Shown in pieces: positions 21,901 to 27,900 of a stretch of DNA of 64,000 nt. Position 1 is the stretch's first letter. Each line of letters begins with the position of its first letter. The position numbers are program-made. This stretch comes from a plasmid, in the NCBI RefSeq assembly GCF_988243305.1, contig NZ_OZ547137.1. One strand, 5' to 3'.

Positions 21901-24900
21901 CGCCACGCTTTTTCAGCCAGTTCATTATCGAACAGGCTTGCCAGATTCAGTAGCAGCGGGTAACGAAAGGGGGTCCAGTAGGCAACCCTGGGCACTGCAG
22001 GATTCATCCCCTGATCGAAGAACGAAATAATGGCGTGATCCCGTTTAACGACCAGCCAGACATCAAACCGTATCCGGTGCTTCTTCTGCAGGACAAGCAG
22101 CGTATCAACCACCTCATCAAGGCGGTGCATGCCAAGCTCTGCGGCGTGCAGACGCTGTACTTGTCAACGCCACGATCTTTGACCGTCTTATATCGACAGA
22201 GTTATCCGGCATGGTGTCAATCCGTTCACAATTTTTCCATCGGAGCAGCCTACCACCGGTGATAACCTGACTTTGCCTGTAGTTTGTATACACAACCCCT
22301 GGCATTGAAACAAACATATGAAGTGTACTTCGGATATGACTGTACGCTCAGGAAGTACGGCAGATTCCGTCAAAAATTACCTGTAAAGACAGACATCAGA
22401 AAAACAGTGCTCGCCGCAGACCGGTGACCGGGCGAAGCCCGCGAACCGGCGAGGAAGCGCAATGGATCTGTAGTTACAGTGAGCAGGTACGCCCTGAAGC
22501 CTTCATAATCGGTAGTGTATGCTGTTTTTCTGGAATGATTTATCCACATATCCAGAGGCCCGATCCAGTAAACAGATCCATGAATGATCAACAAAGGATC
22601 CATTAAAGATCCCCATATCGCTGCAAACCTTGTCATTAATGGTCCGGGAGCACGATCACATAAGCTGTGGCATGTTACTGATAAACTGTAACAGGTTCAT
22701 GATAAGCTGTATTCAGTAATACATATACTGCCGTAAGTTAATGACATAAACTATGGTCAGTATGCCAGACTCAGTTGTTAAATACAGGCTGCAGGTTTTT
22801 CTTCAGTCAGTTGACGGGGTTCTGACACACGATTTTCTGTTTATTCTTTTACTGTCCACAGGCAGGAGGCTTTCTGGAAAACGAAAATTCAGACATCAAA
22901 AAACTGTTCGGCGAGGTGGATAAGTCGTCCGGTGAGCTGGTGACACTGACACCAAACAATAACAACACCGTACAACCTGTGGCGCTGATGCGTCTGGGCG
23001 TCTTTGTACCGACCCTTAAATCACTGAAGAACAGTAAAAAAAATACACTGTCACGTACTGATGCCACGGAAGAGCTGACACGTCTTTCCCTGGCCCGTGC
23101 AGAGGGATTCGATAAAGTTGAGATCACCGGCCCCCGCCTGGATATGGATAACGATTTCAAGACCTGGGTGGGGATCATTCATTCCTTTGCCCGCCATAAC
23201 GTAATTGGTGACAAAGTTGAACTGCCTTTTGTCGAGTTTGCAAAACTGTGTGGTATACCTTCAAGCCAGTCATCCCGCAGGCTGCGTGAGCGCATCAGCC
23301 CTTCCCTGAAGCGCATTGCCGGTACCGTGATTTCGTTTTCCCGTACCGATGAGAAGCACACCCGGGAATATATCACCCATCTGGTACAGTCAGCCTACTA
23401 CGATACTGAGCGGGATATTGTGCAGTTACAGGCCGATCCCCGCCTGTTTGAACTGTACCAGTTTGACAGAAAAGTCCTTCTCCAGCTTAAGGCGATTAAT
23501 GCCCTGAAGCGACGGGAGTCCGCCCAGGCACTCTACACCTTTATAGAGAGCCTGCCCCGGGATCCGGCACCGGTATCGCTGGCGCGGCTGCGTGCACGCC
23601 TCAATCTGAAGTCTCCTGTATTTTCCCAGAACCAGACGGTCAGACGGGCAATGGAGCAGTTGCGCGAGATTGGATACCTTGATTACACGGAGATCCAGCG
23701 GGGGCGGACAAAATTCTTCTGTATTCACTACCGGCGTCCCCGGTTAAAAGCGCCGAATGATGAGAGTAAGGAAAATCCGTTGCCACCTTCACCTGCGGAA
23801 AAAGTCAGTCCGGAGATGGCGGAGAAACTTGCCCTGCTTGAAAAACTGGGCATCACACTGGATGACCTGGAAAAACTCTTCAAATCCCGCTGAACATAAA
23901 CTGTAGTCAGTGAAGAGTGCTCCTTTACTGACTACAGCTTATATTATCAGGTGCAGTGAGTGGTCCGCTCACTGCAGTTTATATTCAGTTTCCTGCAGTG
24001 CTGCCTGTGGCTGAGCTGCCATCTGCCTGTCCCTTACGTGAGTCACCCCGTAACCTGATGCTGAGGCATTGCTCCCTTCATAAAACATGGTTTACTCACT
24101 ACAGCTTATCTACCTGCTCCAGCTTATGTTATGTCTGTTCTGCTGACCACTGCTTATATAAGGAAGTGCCGTTACTTCAGGGGAGGCAGTGTACGCAGGA
24201 TCTCCGCAGCATCCCGACCGTCACCTGTGAAAGGCACTGCCAGCGTGGCAGCCATATCCAGTGCAAACACTCTGGTATAAACCTCCATCGAACGTGGATC
24301 CCTGTGACCAGCCAGTGCCTGGATGACTTTCCGGGGCTGGCGGTGATAGAGCATGTGCATGATATAGCTGTGCCGGAAGGTATGCGGCGTCACCGGAATC
24401 GAAAAGTGTACCCCGTCAGCTTCGGCCCGTCTGACAGCCTGCTTCAGCCAGTTGCGCATGGTTTCGTCGGTCACGGCCCATAATGGTTCACGACGACGGG
24501 GCCGGGTAGTGATCATCCAGCTTTCCATCTGCCTGACATAGCTTATATCTGTCAGCGGAACCAGGCGCACTTCATCTTTTGGCGGGCGTCCGCGTCGCGC
24601 ACGCACTTTTTCGGACAGGATCCGCACAAACGGTCTTGCACCATCCAGGTCAAATGATTCCGGCGTCAGCATCCGGGCTTCGCCAATACGCATTCCGGTA
24701 TTCCAGAGGGTGGCGAACAGCATATGGTGACGCTGATCCGGCATATAGAAAAGAAGGGCACTCACTTCCGGGGCCAGCAGATAGGCCGGTGTGGCCCCCG
24801 TGGAAGTGGCCATTCTTCTCAGGGAGAGCGCTGTTGCAAAATCCACCCCCGGCGCAATGGGTAACAGGGAAACGCGTTCTGGTGAATTCTGCAGGGGAAT

Positions 24901-27900
24901 GACATTGTTCATGAGTTATTTTTCACGTAGCACACGCACTGTTTATGGATACAGGTATTCTGACCTGAACGCCCGGATCCTTCCACGACAATAAATCGCA
25001 GCACGCGGATCCTTTTGTTTGCTTATCACGCATTATTGCGGGTAAAACCAAATACGTAAAGGCGCGTTTTGCAGCAGGGATCCCGTCTTAAGCCAGTCGT
25101 GGCGCGGGCTGATGGCTGGTTTGCCGTCTTTGGGAGAAATGGGGTAATGCCAGGACAAACAGGATCGGACCAAAAGGAAAAGGAGCAGGGAAGAAGGAGG
25201 ATGCGCTACGTGAATTCTGACCTGGTACACCCCTGTAACCCTGCCAGTTTTCACGTAGCGCAATGTGGTTGCTACCTAACACCAGTTGAGATGAGAGCCG
25301 GCATCCTGATGCTGGATTAATATACGGATAATAATAATTTCAGTATCAGTCTGCAGAAAATAAAGCATATGTCGTTCAACGGATAGTGCGAATATGTATT
25401 CCCCCAGTTCAGGGCGGGGAGTACCGATATTATGATCACTCATAACCTGAAAAATATCGGATATCTGATTAATATATTTGTCTGCTTGATCCTCACCAAA
25501 ATGGCGGCACCCGTAATACCAGATATCCTCCAGATCCTGACTGGCTTTCGGTGTGAGTTTAACGGTTTTCACCGGCCCCCCTCGTGCCAGCTTTAACTTT
25601 CTTCAGGAACGCATCTTTTTCCCACACCACAGGTTCACCGCTGCTCAGGCCTTCTGCCAGTAAATCCCGCAGGGCCTGGAGACGTGACTCTGCCTGTTTC
25701 TCGCGCAGGAGACGAAGTGACTCGCGGATTACTTCACTCTGTGTACGGTAATCACCTGATTCTATGAGAGATTCTATGTACTCCCAGAGTTCATCTCCGA
25801 GAGCAACTGTCATTGTTCTGGCCATATCAAGCCTCGTGATTGTAAGTTTAAATTTTACATGCAGTTTATTCGATACTCAAAGGTGCTTCCAGTACAGAAC
25901 ATTTGGGAGAATTGGGGTAATGCCTGGAACAGACAGATACGGAGAAAAACCCTGCAGATAACCTTATACGACAACTGAAGGTGTCTGATGCCATATTCTT
26001 AGCTACTTCTCTGTCTTCAGGCGGCTTAGTCACAACATAAGACCGATGCATAATAAGCATATTTTTTCATGTTATGGTCTTGTTCATGCATGAACTATTA
26101 TCTATTCAGTCACTTTTAAAGTTTTATATCATACTGCATATGATATATATCATCTCCTATATTCAGACTAAAAATATTATGACGATGGTCAAATGAATTT
26201 AGTGAAAACGCTACCTAAAACAATATGCTTATGATATAACTTATCAAGAATATGCGACAATCTTCTTGAAAGGTTACGGAGAAGAGTCAGATAATGAAGT
26301 GTTATAACTCATTCAGCTTTTTTATGTTCTCTTTATAGTAAAACTAGGAGATTAAGATGAATCAGAAGTGGAAGACGTTAATTATTTCATTATTAACACC
26401 ATCAAGTATTATATCAGGGATTGCGTTGATAGTTCTCTGGGGATATTTCAGTCGCCTGGGCCGACTAGATATTTTCTTTGATGTAATGAATATTAAAAGC
26501 ATCTTGGTATTGGTTTGTTGTGCAACTATACTATCATTGGCTATGATAGTATTTATCTTTTTTATAACCTCTTTTTTTATACCCGTAGTTATTCCTCAGG
26601 ATATAAATAATCTTCCTGCTTACAATAAGATTCAGGGTAATTTTTTATCTGTGATGATGTTATCTGGCATGTTCCCCATGGCCTTTATATATGTGTTATA
26701 CTGTGCATTTGATTTTGATCAGAATGTTAAAGATAACTCTGGCTGGTTATCTATTGCAAGTATGGGTGTACTGATAGCTGTTATTTTAGCCATAGTAAAT
26801 AAGAGGTATCTTGAATATGACTTATCGTTTAAAAACAATAGAATGAAACTGTTGAGACGTGTTCAGATCTATCTTGTCATTCCGTTGTCTATTGCTTTAC
26901 TGGTGCATCTTCAGTTAATTCCTCTGGAGATAGTTTTTAGGAATATTGCAACTTCAGATAAGAGTGTTAATTTCAAAGTGATAGCCGAACTGGCTTTCAT
27001 GTCATATTTTATCTTTCTTCTGACAATGCTTCCTGGAGTCATTTATCTGAAAATGAATCCACAGCATAAATTTTCAAAAAGAATTAGCTATTCATTTATC
27101 GCATCCTTGATGTTATTATTAATAATATCGACTCAAATAACCGTGTTACCAGTGATTTTTACCCATTCCGTTATTAAGCTATCAGGTATAAGTGACTTCA
27201 AAATACATAGCTACATTATTAAATCAAGTGAATATCCTGAAGAGTTTTTTTCCAATGCAGCATGGGATAAAAAAAATATAAAACCGGGGGATTATTACTC
27301 TGTGCAGGCTGTTTCTATGTTTACGACAAACCAGTTTATTCTCCTTTGTCCTAAGGATATTATAAAGTTTTATCGGGAAAGCTGGAAGTTCGAGTTGCTT
27401 AATGTAGACTTCGATATAAATACCAGGAAGAAACTCCAGGAAGAAGCTGCATATTGCGTACCAATTTCTGCAATATCTGTAAAACGATGGGATATGCCTC
27501 TTCAGGGCTCGAAACCCTCAAGTTAGAAGGCAACTAGGGCGACTGTATTCTGTGACGAAATGAATGGCTGGCTCACTATAATAATGAGCGAACCCATCAG
27601 GGAAAAATGTGCAATGGGCGGACGCCAATGGAAACGTTACTCGATGGAAAACGCATCTGGGCCGAGAAAAATTTAAGCCAGATGTAATCTGACAGATACC
27701 TGTATAAATAACCGATAACTGTCAGATCAGGTCTGAGCTAATACATTTCAATAAAGGTACTTGCTCGCGCTCTGTCATTTTCTGAAACTCTTCATGCTGC
27801 ATTTCGATTTTCCTTCTAAGATCATAACTCGCATACCTGTTCTTTTTATGTATATCTATATCTATTTTTGTGACGAGTTCAAACCACAATGTTCGCGCTC

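Follow-up and report, generated by a model that had tools for sequence, protein, structure and literature searches.

The region described here lies in a window of 64 kb (the whole stretch of DNA that was analysed) and is, with a probability of about 0.93, a RepFIB (IncFIB) basic replicon from an IncF-type plasmid, complete in its parts and accompanied by an attached recombinase gene that travels with it. As a replication unit, this RepFIB is ordinary textbook material and already well understood, given that more than half of fully sequenced E. coli carry the module. Its identity, layout, intactness and conservation were observed directly, and it is predicted from the sequence to be active in replication in this particular plasmid. 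Like the RepFIB replicons of F (AP001918/NC_002483), pO157 and P307 (M26308), it has the order origin, iterons B to D*, repA, iterons E to K and a convergent int, and it has in common with them a CTG start, a DnaA box, the typing-primer sites and a 339-aa Rep that is alike but for one residue. The original prediction, which set replicon and recombinase at 22640-24912, holds for the genes and the iterons, all of which lie within that range, but leaves out origin-proximal features between 22540 and 22612; the origin itself reaches farther left than 22640.

Replicon typing and plasmid context

Alignment to the RepFIB of F, which had been suggested as a check, gives 97.7% DNA identity over 22300-25100 (NC_002483 = AP001918), and the corresponding values are 98.4% for an IncFIA/FIB/FIC plasmid and 96.6% for pO157 over the alignable 2.6 kb (from about 22500). 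The FIB replicon-typing primers, designed on P307 (M26308; primer identity per PMC10893597), yield in silico a product of 703 bp versus the published 702 bp, with one mismatch at the forward site (22816-22839) and none at the reverse site (23498-23518). The closest-matching plasmids are IncFIB by MOB-suite, and FIA and FII replicons are also found on them. With 13 differences from F in 978 nt, repA lies within the similarity of about 95% that serves in common practice as the typing threshold for FIB rep. At the protein level, V234I is the sole change relative to F (338 of 339 residues match) and F281L the sole change relative to pO157, such that the RepA of the window combines a pO157-like V234 with an F-like F281. 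The original match of repA to RepFIB is upheld by the protein, the primers and the IncFIB-typed relatives alike.

Of 5426 complete E. coli genomes, 3171 contain the module. Among the 72,556 plasmids and 5,426 E. coli genomes searched, no record exceeds 98.5% identity to the 2.6-kb allele, which is therefore an unsampled variant, diverged by 1.5-3.4% from every record searched. The allele has small changes inside iterons D', D* and J, these being point differences from F and pO157 (CC for AA in D'), and does not carry the 6-bp insert CGCGTA found after iteron J in both of these plasmids.

The surroundings are those of a plasmid maintenance backbone, as had been proposed: Pfam confirms ccdA, ccdB, resD, parM/stbB and a parA-like gene with an RHH partner, as well as parDE, and the flanks on both sides match IncF plasmids at 99.7-99.8%. 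That the window is IncF-type plasmid DNA is well supported, being borne out by the 97.7% identity to F, the IncFIB relatives and the full set of 12 iterons; 64 kb by itself is no proof of an extrachromosomal state.

Origin and iterons

A perfect DnaA box, TTATCCACA, lies at 22540-22548 on the plus strand; only one other perfect match exists in the 64 kb. The box is the same in F, pO157 and two further plasmids. In the published FIB map, the DnaA site likewise adjoins the upstream iterons (PMC11983097, Fig. 3 legend). Next to the box, five GATC (Dam) sites with spacings of 13, 11, 11 and 11 bp occupy 22562-22611, forming the densest such cluster in the window (6 per 100 bp versus a mean of 3.7 per kb). 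The cluster is a putative unwinding and methylation-sensitive part of the origin, a function that we assume by analogy with oriC and P1 oriR. Farther upstream, a G+C-rich hairpin (22406-22466) looks like a terminator because a T-run follows it on the minus strand. Two oppositely directed copies that flank repE in F match it at 79% identity, and its predicted fold has -29.4 kcal/mol, with a z of only about -1.7 to -2.0. It may act as an insulator or a priming signal, and its role in the replicon is uncertain.

Repeats of roughly 20 bp had been noted on both sides of repA, and five upstream and seven downstream copies were located. Counted against the reference layout, 12 of 12 are present in the published order and orientation, with labels B to K following Supplementary Fig. 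S2 of PMC11983097 (F/pO157 layout). Iterons B, C, D, D' and D* (22658-22763, plus strand) are direct repeats in a phase of about 21 bp, with starts at 22658, 22679, 22700, 22721 and 22744, a spacing of 21-23 bp and the core ATAAGCTGT. They represent the origin-associated putative RepA sites, and the upstream block has been tied to the replication origin (PMC11983097). Downstream, iterons E to J (23894-24159) make up the copy-number and incompatibility control block; in published experiments, such an EFGHIJ block by itself displaces a pO157 FIB replicon (PMC11983097). Iteron E (23894-23913) has the plus orientation of the upstream set, and the six iterons F to K are inverted, with the core ACAGCTTAT, at 23925-23944, 23965-23984, 24092-24111, 24110-24129, 24140-24159 and 24529-24548. 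The last of these, K, scores 19.0 bits and sits inside the recombinase coding sequence, a position that agrees with Supplementary Fig. S2 of PMC11983097. When a position-weight matrix built from the 12 copies was scanned over both strands of the 64 kb, the iterons scored 16.8-27.8 bits (leave-one-out, 11.1-26.4), and the best non-iteron score on either strand was 13.2 bits. Straight after the repA stop codon, E and F together form a hairpin with a 15-bp stem (-29.1 kcal/mol, z = -5.3).

Initiator gene and protein

The repA open reading frame, as usually annotated, runs from a GTG at 22916 to 23893 on the plus strand and encodes 325 aa, whose 19 N-terminal residues are exactly those given in the original prediction. 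These residues are present in the protein, but they are not its beginning: the true start is an in-frame CTG located at 22874, 14 codons 5' of the GTG, resulting in a protein of 339 aa (22874-23893). The CTG start of FIB rep has been established experimentally (PMC11983097). The N-terminal 14 residues are kept in homologues, at least 90% of which have F12 and E14. The segment 22850-22920 is identical to that of pO157, including the functional ribosome-binding site and the CTG. Its Shine-Dalgarno sequence, AGGAGG at 22864-22869, has AGAAGG as its counterpart in plasmid F, and the ribosome-binding site is of the strong pO157 type, unlike the weak one in F. It is this single base in the ribosome-binding site that constitutes the F defect, and the FIB replicon of F is partly defective (PMC11983097). 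In the repA leader (22764-22873, plus strand), a partial iteron AGTCAGT at about 22804-22810, beside a TTGACG hexamer, is a putative operator; a simple scan found no consensus promoter for repA on the plus strand.

By its N-terminal domain (Pfam Rep3_N/WH1, PF01051), RepA belongs with the Rep_3 iteron-binding initiators of the RepE, Pi and pPS10 RepA type: the domain scores 43.3 bits (E = 6e-11), well over the curated cut-off of 22.4. The Rep3_C match, at 18.5 bits, is under the cut-off of 21.1, yet at the expected position (235-279). An AlphaFold model of moderate confidence (pLDDT 67.8) has the helix-strand elements of two winged-helix-like units. The best 20 PDB matches of this model in Foldseek are all iteron initiators (RctB, RepE, Pi and others) with probabilities of 0.99-1.00, at TM-scores of only 0.25-0.42, those to RepE and RctB being among these low values. 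The predicted fold matches RepE, with no sequence match between the two proteins detected by phmmer. Synonymous codon differences outnumber non-synonymous ones 12:1 relative to F and 21:1 relative to pO157, and repA appears to be under strong purifying selection.

Proposed control of replication

Published work on F, pO157 and P307 is the source for the start codon, for what the two iteron blocks do and for handcuffing. RepA would be an iteron-binding initiator with two winged-helix domains, synthesized at a low level from the CTG at 22874 with a strong ribosome-binding site in front, and would repress its own gene. RepA monomers would bind the five phased upstream iterons (22658-22763) and, together with host DnaA at the 22540 box, open the adjacent GATC-rich DNA, whereupon replication would start. 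As copy number climbs, RepA on the downstream iterons E to K (23894-24548) would pair with the upstream set of the same or of another plasmid, and this handcuffing would stop initiation and be the source of FIB incompatibility. The same logic is found in RepFIA (mini-F ori2/repE/incC) and P1 (oriR/repA/incA), in which a winged-helix initiator gene lies between the origin and the control iterons, and which have a DnaA box, autoregulation and handcuffing in common with RepFIB. In contrast to both systems, the window has a different iteron sequence, most of its control iterons run opposite to those of the origin, and repA starts with CTG.

The adjoining recombinase gene

Convergent with repA, int (24172-24912, minus strand) encodes a tyrosine recombinase of 246 aa, as had been proposed, with a PF00589 score of 55.4 bits versus a cut-off of 27.1. 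Residues R75, H177, R180, H203 and Y212 align with the active-site residues of XerD, the position of the catalytic lysine being ambiguous, and by its sequence Int is a catalytically intact enzyme of this type. Int is a paralogue of ResD, with 47% identity along the full protein (E = 4e-68, 254 aligned columns). No Pfam N-terminal core-binding (SAM-like) domain was found in Int, in which about 50 residues precede the catalytic domain. The same short form is seen in ResD, and a missing N-terminal domain is no bar to membership of the superfamily. Int does not reach the curated NCBIfam cut-offs for IntI, XerC or XerD, the best scores being 51-58 bits where 220-435 are required. The gene adjoins rep in F, pO157 and Klebsiella FIB(K) plasmids, with synonymous to non-synonymous codon differences of 13:1 versus F and 102:19 versus Klebsiella.

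Upstream of int, a conserved region (24913-25156, minus strand) carries a promoter-like site (25060-25032) and, 8 nt ahead of the ATG of int, a copy of the GCTACGTGAA box. It is alignable across E. coli, Klebsiella and Salmonella plasmids, and many plasmid alignments stop at 25155/25156. Beyond it, between parE and int, lies an imperfect palindrome of 59-61 bp (GCGCTACGTGAA ... TTCACGTAGCGC; 25202-25262), which folds at -36.8 kcal/mol (z = -5.3), has compensatory changes in 8 of 24 pairs across eight plasmids and is flipped in orientation in one Salmonella plasmid. It may be a recombination site for Int or an RNA hairpin. This conserved palindrome is the only unexplained item of the region.

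The literature searched contained no published function for a RepFIB-adjacent int. Int is most probably a multimer resolvase acting at a site upstream of its own gene, for which the conserved upstream region and the palindrome are candidate elements. In its short architecture, catalytic residues, plasmid location and adjacency to a replicon, it is like ResD/rfsF of F and Rsd/crs of Salmonella virulence plasmids. It differs from ResD in being a separate paralogue, both genes being present in the window, and in lying outside any ccdAB operon. In addition, no rfsF-like 8-8-8 palindrome was found near int, the only likeness to the rfsF region there being an 8-mer. A wider proposal, put forward tentatively, is that int, its upstream region and the palindrome (24913-25262) form a ResD-like module that may resolve FIB multimers and, via cointegration and resolution between plasmids, may act as a recurrent cargo-swap junction beside FIB in E. 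coli, Klebsiella and Salmonella plasmids.

Alternative interpretations

Three other readings bear on the replicon. That repA belongs to a different iteron family, such as Klebsiella IncFIB(K) or a P1-like RepA of a phage-plasmid, and is merely RepFIB-like, has a negligible probability: Klebsiella-type relatives do reach 80-90% DNA identity, and RepA homologues with 59-92% protein identity are spread across Enterobacterales, but the identity to E. coli FIB references is 97-98.5%, RepA is a single amino acid away from each of F and pO157, and every reference iteron is present. It is very improbable, too, that the window is a plasmid segment integrated in a chromosome. Forty of the 4908 module places in complete E. 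coli genomes are chromosomal, including a 98.5% match in a 5.0-Mb record; the remaining 4868 (>99%) are on plasmids, the flanks on both sides are near-identical to IncF plasmids, and partition, toxin-antitoxin and resolvase genes surround the module. More weight, although still doubtful, attaches to an intact RepFIB that is silent or a back-up in a multi-replicon IncF plasmid driven by an FII or FIA replicon outside the window. The nearest plasmids are typed IncFIA+FIB+FII or FIC, the FIB replicon of F is partly defective, and pCG86 has been reported to carry an intact but inactive one. Moreover, ccdAB-resD, normally of the FIA region, is in the window, yet neither repE nor a CopA RNA was found there, and other replicons may therefore sit beyond the 64 kb. 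Against this, the F defect is one base for which the window carries the functional pO157 version, and the purifying selection on repA and the intactness of all iterons favour use of FIB. Since such silence concerns usage and not identity, it is compatible with the assignment as a complete RepFIB replicon.

As for int, it is rather unlikely that the enzyme is not a multimer resolvase but an integrase or exchange enzyme joining different cargo to RepFIB, with the crossover at the palindrome or the 25156 junction. In more than 5000 plasmid alignments, ends cluster at 25155/25156, 25175 and 25250-25263, and past about 25156 the DNA is different in each of F, pO157 and CP025861; these ends, however, may go back to a small number of ancestral junctions that many records have inherited. 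The conservation of the palindrome with compensatory changes, and its inversion in one plasmid, would fit a crossover site, but its centre measures 33-35 bp versus the 6-8-bp spacers of known tyrosine-recombinase core sites, and it could equally be an RNA hairpin at the parDE 3' end. Finally, rfsF, the site of ResD, has been described as a point at which IncI1 plasmids switch gene sets, and CAGGTCAG occurs beside an rfsF-like palindrome and twice upstream of int, this common 8-mer being weak evidence (E = 3). Resolution and exchange do not rule each other out, because a single site-specific reaction can give both.

Implications

The RepFIB finding places the window in the backbone of an IncF plasmid. 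It also bears on annotation, in that the usual form of rep (GTG, 325 aa) lacks the first 14 codons and the real start is a rare CTG. Functional and defective FIB replicons differ by one base of the ribosome-binding site, this allele being of the functional kind. The downstream E to J iteron block is predicted to serve as a curing or incompatibility tool against the plasmid, per PMC11983097. As for the recombinase, more than half of complete E. coli genomes contain this highly conserved int beside FIB, so that knowing its role would help explain the monomer state of IncF plasmids and their exchange of cargo.

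Replicon identity and frequency

The original prediction placed a RepFIB replicon and an adjacent tyrosine recombinase at 22640–24912. When 22400–25000 was searched by megablast, at least 5000 plasmid records were matched, mostly from Escherichia, followed by Klebsiella and Salmonella, and the same module is present in 3171 of 5426 complete E. coli genomes, where 4868 of its 4908 places are plasmid-borne. Local alignment of 22300–25100 gave identities of 98.4% to CP025861 (an IncFIA/FIB/FIC plasmid of ETEC), 97.8% to pRHBSTW-00670_2, and 97.7% to plasmid F (NC_002483.1), and pO157 (NC_002128.1) is 96.6% identical over the alignable 2.6 kb, from about 22500. 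Both F and pO157 have the convergent rep–int arrangement of the window, and the rep gene of pO157 is annotated as RepFIB (P307 replicon). The initiator protein RepA differs from its plasmid F counterpart solely by V234I and from that of pO157 solely by F281L; at the codon level, repA carries 12–23 synonymous and one or two non-synonymous differences relative to the four references. Comparison with P307 was made through the typing primers and a clade-specific base quoted in PMC11983097. The FIB replicon-typing primers, designed on P307 (M26308) to yield a 702-bp product (PMC10893597), match in silico at 22816–22839 (one mismatch) and 23498–23518 (no mismatches), predicting 703 bp.

In-silico primers, identity, and RepA all point to FIB, and the RepFIB assignment stands because typing to another family, the outcome named as contradicting it, fails. 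The original reading thus holds, subject to small corrections. Among the records matched, both plasmids and E. coli genomes, the best identity to the window allele is at most 98.5%; as judged from these alignments, this divergence is ordinary allelic diversity and not a new kind of replicon, RepFIB itself being already known. Since the window gave no FIA initiator in a tblastn search with F RepE and, in Rfam, no copy of the FII marker CopA RNA, RepFIB is the only replicon found in the 64 kb. Rfam also reported no known RNA in 22000–26000.

The initiator gene and its protein

As commonly annotated, repA occupies 22916..23893 (+) and encodes 325 aa from a GTG codon, and translation of this frame begins with the same 19 residues that had been read from the sequence at the outset. 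Recent work places the start of FIB rep at a CTG that precedes the usual GTG by 14 codons, on the grounds that the P307 protein was sequenced from its N terminus and that replication was lost upon changing CTG to CTC (Lloyd et al. 2025, PMC11983097). An in-frame CTG is found at 22874 in the window, extending RepA to 339 aa; the N-terminal extension is present in RepA homologs down to ~60% identity, with F12 and E14 kept in at least 90% of them. The replication defect of plasmid F has been traced to a single base in the ribosome-binding site (PMC11983097), and there the window carries AGGAGG, as does the functional pO157, whereas plasmid F carries AGAAGG. In a scan for consensus promoters, none was detected for repA.

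With respect to protein family, RepA scores well above the cut-off for Pfam Rep3_N (WH1) and just under that for Rep3_C (WH2), the latter at the expected position; no NCBIfam model matches it, and phmmer against PDB sequences returned nothing meaningful. The AlphaFold model, based on an alignment of 34 sequences, is of moderate confidence (pLDDT 67.8), with the core at 60–290 mostly at 70–86. When this model was compared with the PDB by Foldseek, each of the best 20 matches was an iteron-binding initiator (RctB domains 2–3, RepE, the Rep–DUE complex, an MSBI WH1 domain, and Pi), but their TM-scores are low.

Iterons, origin, and replication control

Repeat finding revealed families of ~20-bp repeats on either side of repA. 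When the copies were registered by the labels of Supplementary Fig. S2 of Lloyd et al. 2025 (PMC11983097), 12 of the 12 reference iterons proved to be present. Upstream of repA, iterons B, C, D, D', and D* form direct repeats starting at 22658, 22679, 22700, 22721, and 22744. Downstream, iteron E (23894–23913) keeps the orientation of the upstream block, and the opposite orientation is taken by F (23925–23944), G (23965–23984), H (24092–24111), I (24110–24129), J (24140–24159), and K (24529–24548), the last of which lies inside the recombinase gene int. Scored with a weight matrix derived from the 12 copies themselves, the iterons reach 16.8–27.8 bits (11.1–26.4 on leave-one-out), compared with at most 13.2 bits elsewhere in the 64 kb; because these matrix scores exceed anything else there, the iterons are regarded as real and specific to the repA locus.

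The range first proposed starts at 22640, and the origin extends further left. A perfect DnaA box lies at 22540–22548; the window holds two such boxes, and this one is kept in every reference. Five GATC sites spaced by 13, 11, 11, and 11 bp, the densest such cluster in the window, occupy 22562–22611. Iterons E and F, as an inverted pair, form a hairpin with a 15-bp stem directly after the repA stop codon (−29.1 kcal/mol, z = −5.3), which may double as the repA terminator. Upstream of the DnaA box there is also a G+C-rich hairpin (22406–22466), after which the minus strand carries a T-run. In plasmid F, two copies in opposite orientations, at ~79% identity to the window hairpin, flank repE (18029–18089 and 19567–19619); the hairpin may serve as a shared terminator/insulator or as a priming signal.

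In studies of F, pO157, and P307, the upstream iteron block is associated with the origin, whereas control is exerted by the downstream block: EFGHIJ alone displaces a pO157 FIB replicon, but the upstream block alone does not (PMC11983097). Rep is weakly expressed and autoregulated, and handcuffing, the Rep-mediated pairing of both iteron sets, limits copy number and causes incompatibility (PMC11983097). Every sequence element required for this published scheme is present in the window and under purifying selection, and the scheme is presumably active in this plasmid.

Plasmid context and cargo

The maintenance genes named alongside the replicon, ccdAB–resD and the par loci, were recovered by Pfam as parM/stbB (9167–10535), a parA-like gene with an RHH partner (10764–11677), resD–ccdB–ccdA (11815–13150), and parDE (25276–25825). 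The ccdAB–resD segment is a remnant without the FIA initiator gene repE. Upstream of ccdA, a perfect palindrome, GATGACAC-AATATATA-GTGTCATC (13454–13477), lies where the resolution site of ResD, rfsF, would be expected.

Positions 1–13569 and 22296–28916 match pRHBSTW-00670_2, an AAF/I-encoding IncF plasmid, and 18068–25154 matches an ETEC plasmid; by these alignments, the window is a mosaic. Relative to pRHBSTW-00670_2, the flanks are ~99.8% identical and the rep–int block (22300–25100) is 97.8% identical, and the FIB module allele therefore differs from that of pRHBSTW-00670_2. This pattern suggests that the FIB module has undergone allelic replacement by recombination.

Further features were found elsewhere in the window. 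A SIR2–HerA anti-phage defense pair lies at 13816–16112 (−), with HerA of full length (PADLOC 735 bits) and SIR2 reduced to its C-terminal half (163 aa, matching positions 186–346 of 347), apparently cut by the adjoining IS3-family element at ~16211–17469. A KfrA-like DNA-binding protein (Pfam KfrA_N) is encoded at 18129–18851 (+), ~4 kb left of the replicon, and pO157 likewise has a KfrA-like gene near RepFIB. Just left of the replicon are the gene for an abortive-infection protein resembling AbiJ (Pfam Abi_C and AbiJ_NTD5; PADLOC AbiJ) and an adjoining 270-aa ORF with no match in Pfam, NCBIfam, or PADLOC, at 20289–21029 (+) and 21318–22130 (−); CP025861 has an Abi gene at the equivalent position relative to rep. 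To the right, a predicted multi-pass membrane protein of 389 aa (26357–27526, +), located between two ParE/RelE-type toxin–antitoxin pairs, has no match in Pfam or PADLOC and carries only a hypothetical annotation in the matching plasmid. Rfam matches, namely three IS3-family frameshift pseudoknots (ALIL; 39393–39509, 48691–48807, and 55866–55982), the small RNA isrC (48039–48161), and a group II intron catalytic core (53253–53339), point to an intron and several insertion elements within the window's cargo half.

The recombinase int and its upstream region

The predicted tyrosine recombinase next to repA is borne out by a Pfam phage-integrase catalytic domain in int (24172..24912, −), which encodes 246 aa and is convergent with repA. 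Residues R75, H177, R180, H203, and Y212 of Int align with the catalytic residues of XerD. Its scores fall far under the curated NCBIfam cut-offs for Xer recombinases and integron integrases, and both assignments were rejected. Orthology to Salmonella Rsd was rejected as well: rsdB lies within the ccdAB operon and therefore corresponds to ResD, not to Int. Over its full length, Int is 47% identical to the window's own ResD homolog, whose gene lies beside ccdAB (11815–12624); ResD is the multimer resolvase of the F plasmid and acts at rfsF (PMC4398462). Int is strongly conserved: relative to plasmid F, int carries 13 synonymous codon differences and one non-synonymous difference, and the protein is 93% identical in Klebsiella FIB(K) plasmids. 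Among the records inspected, those of E. coli FIB and of Klebsiella FIB(K) plasmids all have int beside rep. In the literature searched, no function has been assigned to int. Our best guess, at roughly even odds, is that it provides the FIB replicon with a second resolution system of the ResD type.

Upstream of int, a conserved region of ~245 bp (24913–25156) is common to E. coli, Klebsiella, and Salmonella plasmids and stops at a common point near 25156, past which a variable pyrimidine-rich spacer leads to a 59-bp imperfect palindrome (25202–25262) with outer arms GCGCTACGTGAA and TTCACGTAGCGC. The 10-mer TTCACGTAGC occurs in exactly three copies in the window, all upstream of int, one of them 8 nt before its start codon. 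Either the palindrome or the GCTACGTGAA / AGGTCAGAAT boxes would be candidate elements of an Int site. In IncI1 plasmids, the ResD site rfsF has been described as an exchange point for gene sets (PMC8004404); the rfsF region and the region upstream of int share only 7–9-mer matches.

The palindrome has a folding energy of −36.8 kcal/mol (z = −5.3) and is conserved across eight plasmids, where 8 of 24 pairs show compensatory changes; its orientation is flipped in one Salmonella plasmid (Salmonella salamae). For more than 5000 plasmids, the alignment end points form clusters at 25155/25156, 25175, and 25250–25263. Taken together, these facts fit a recombination site and an RNA hairpin where the parDE operon ends equally well. 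A preference for G·U pairs among the one-sided changes on the int-sense strand would point to an RNA, but the counts of G·U wobbles and A·C mismatches are so similar, and the sequences so closely related, that they do not separate the two. The sole lead worth noting is the uncharacterized recombinase, together with the palindrome upstream of its gene.
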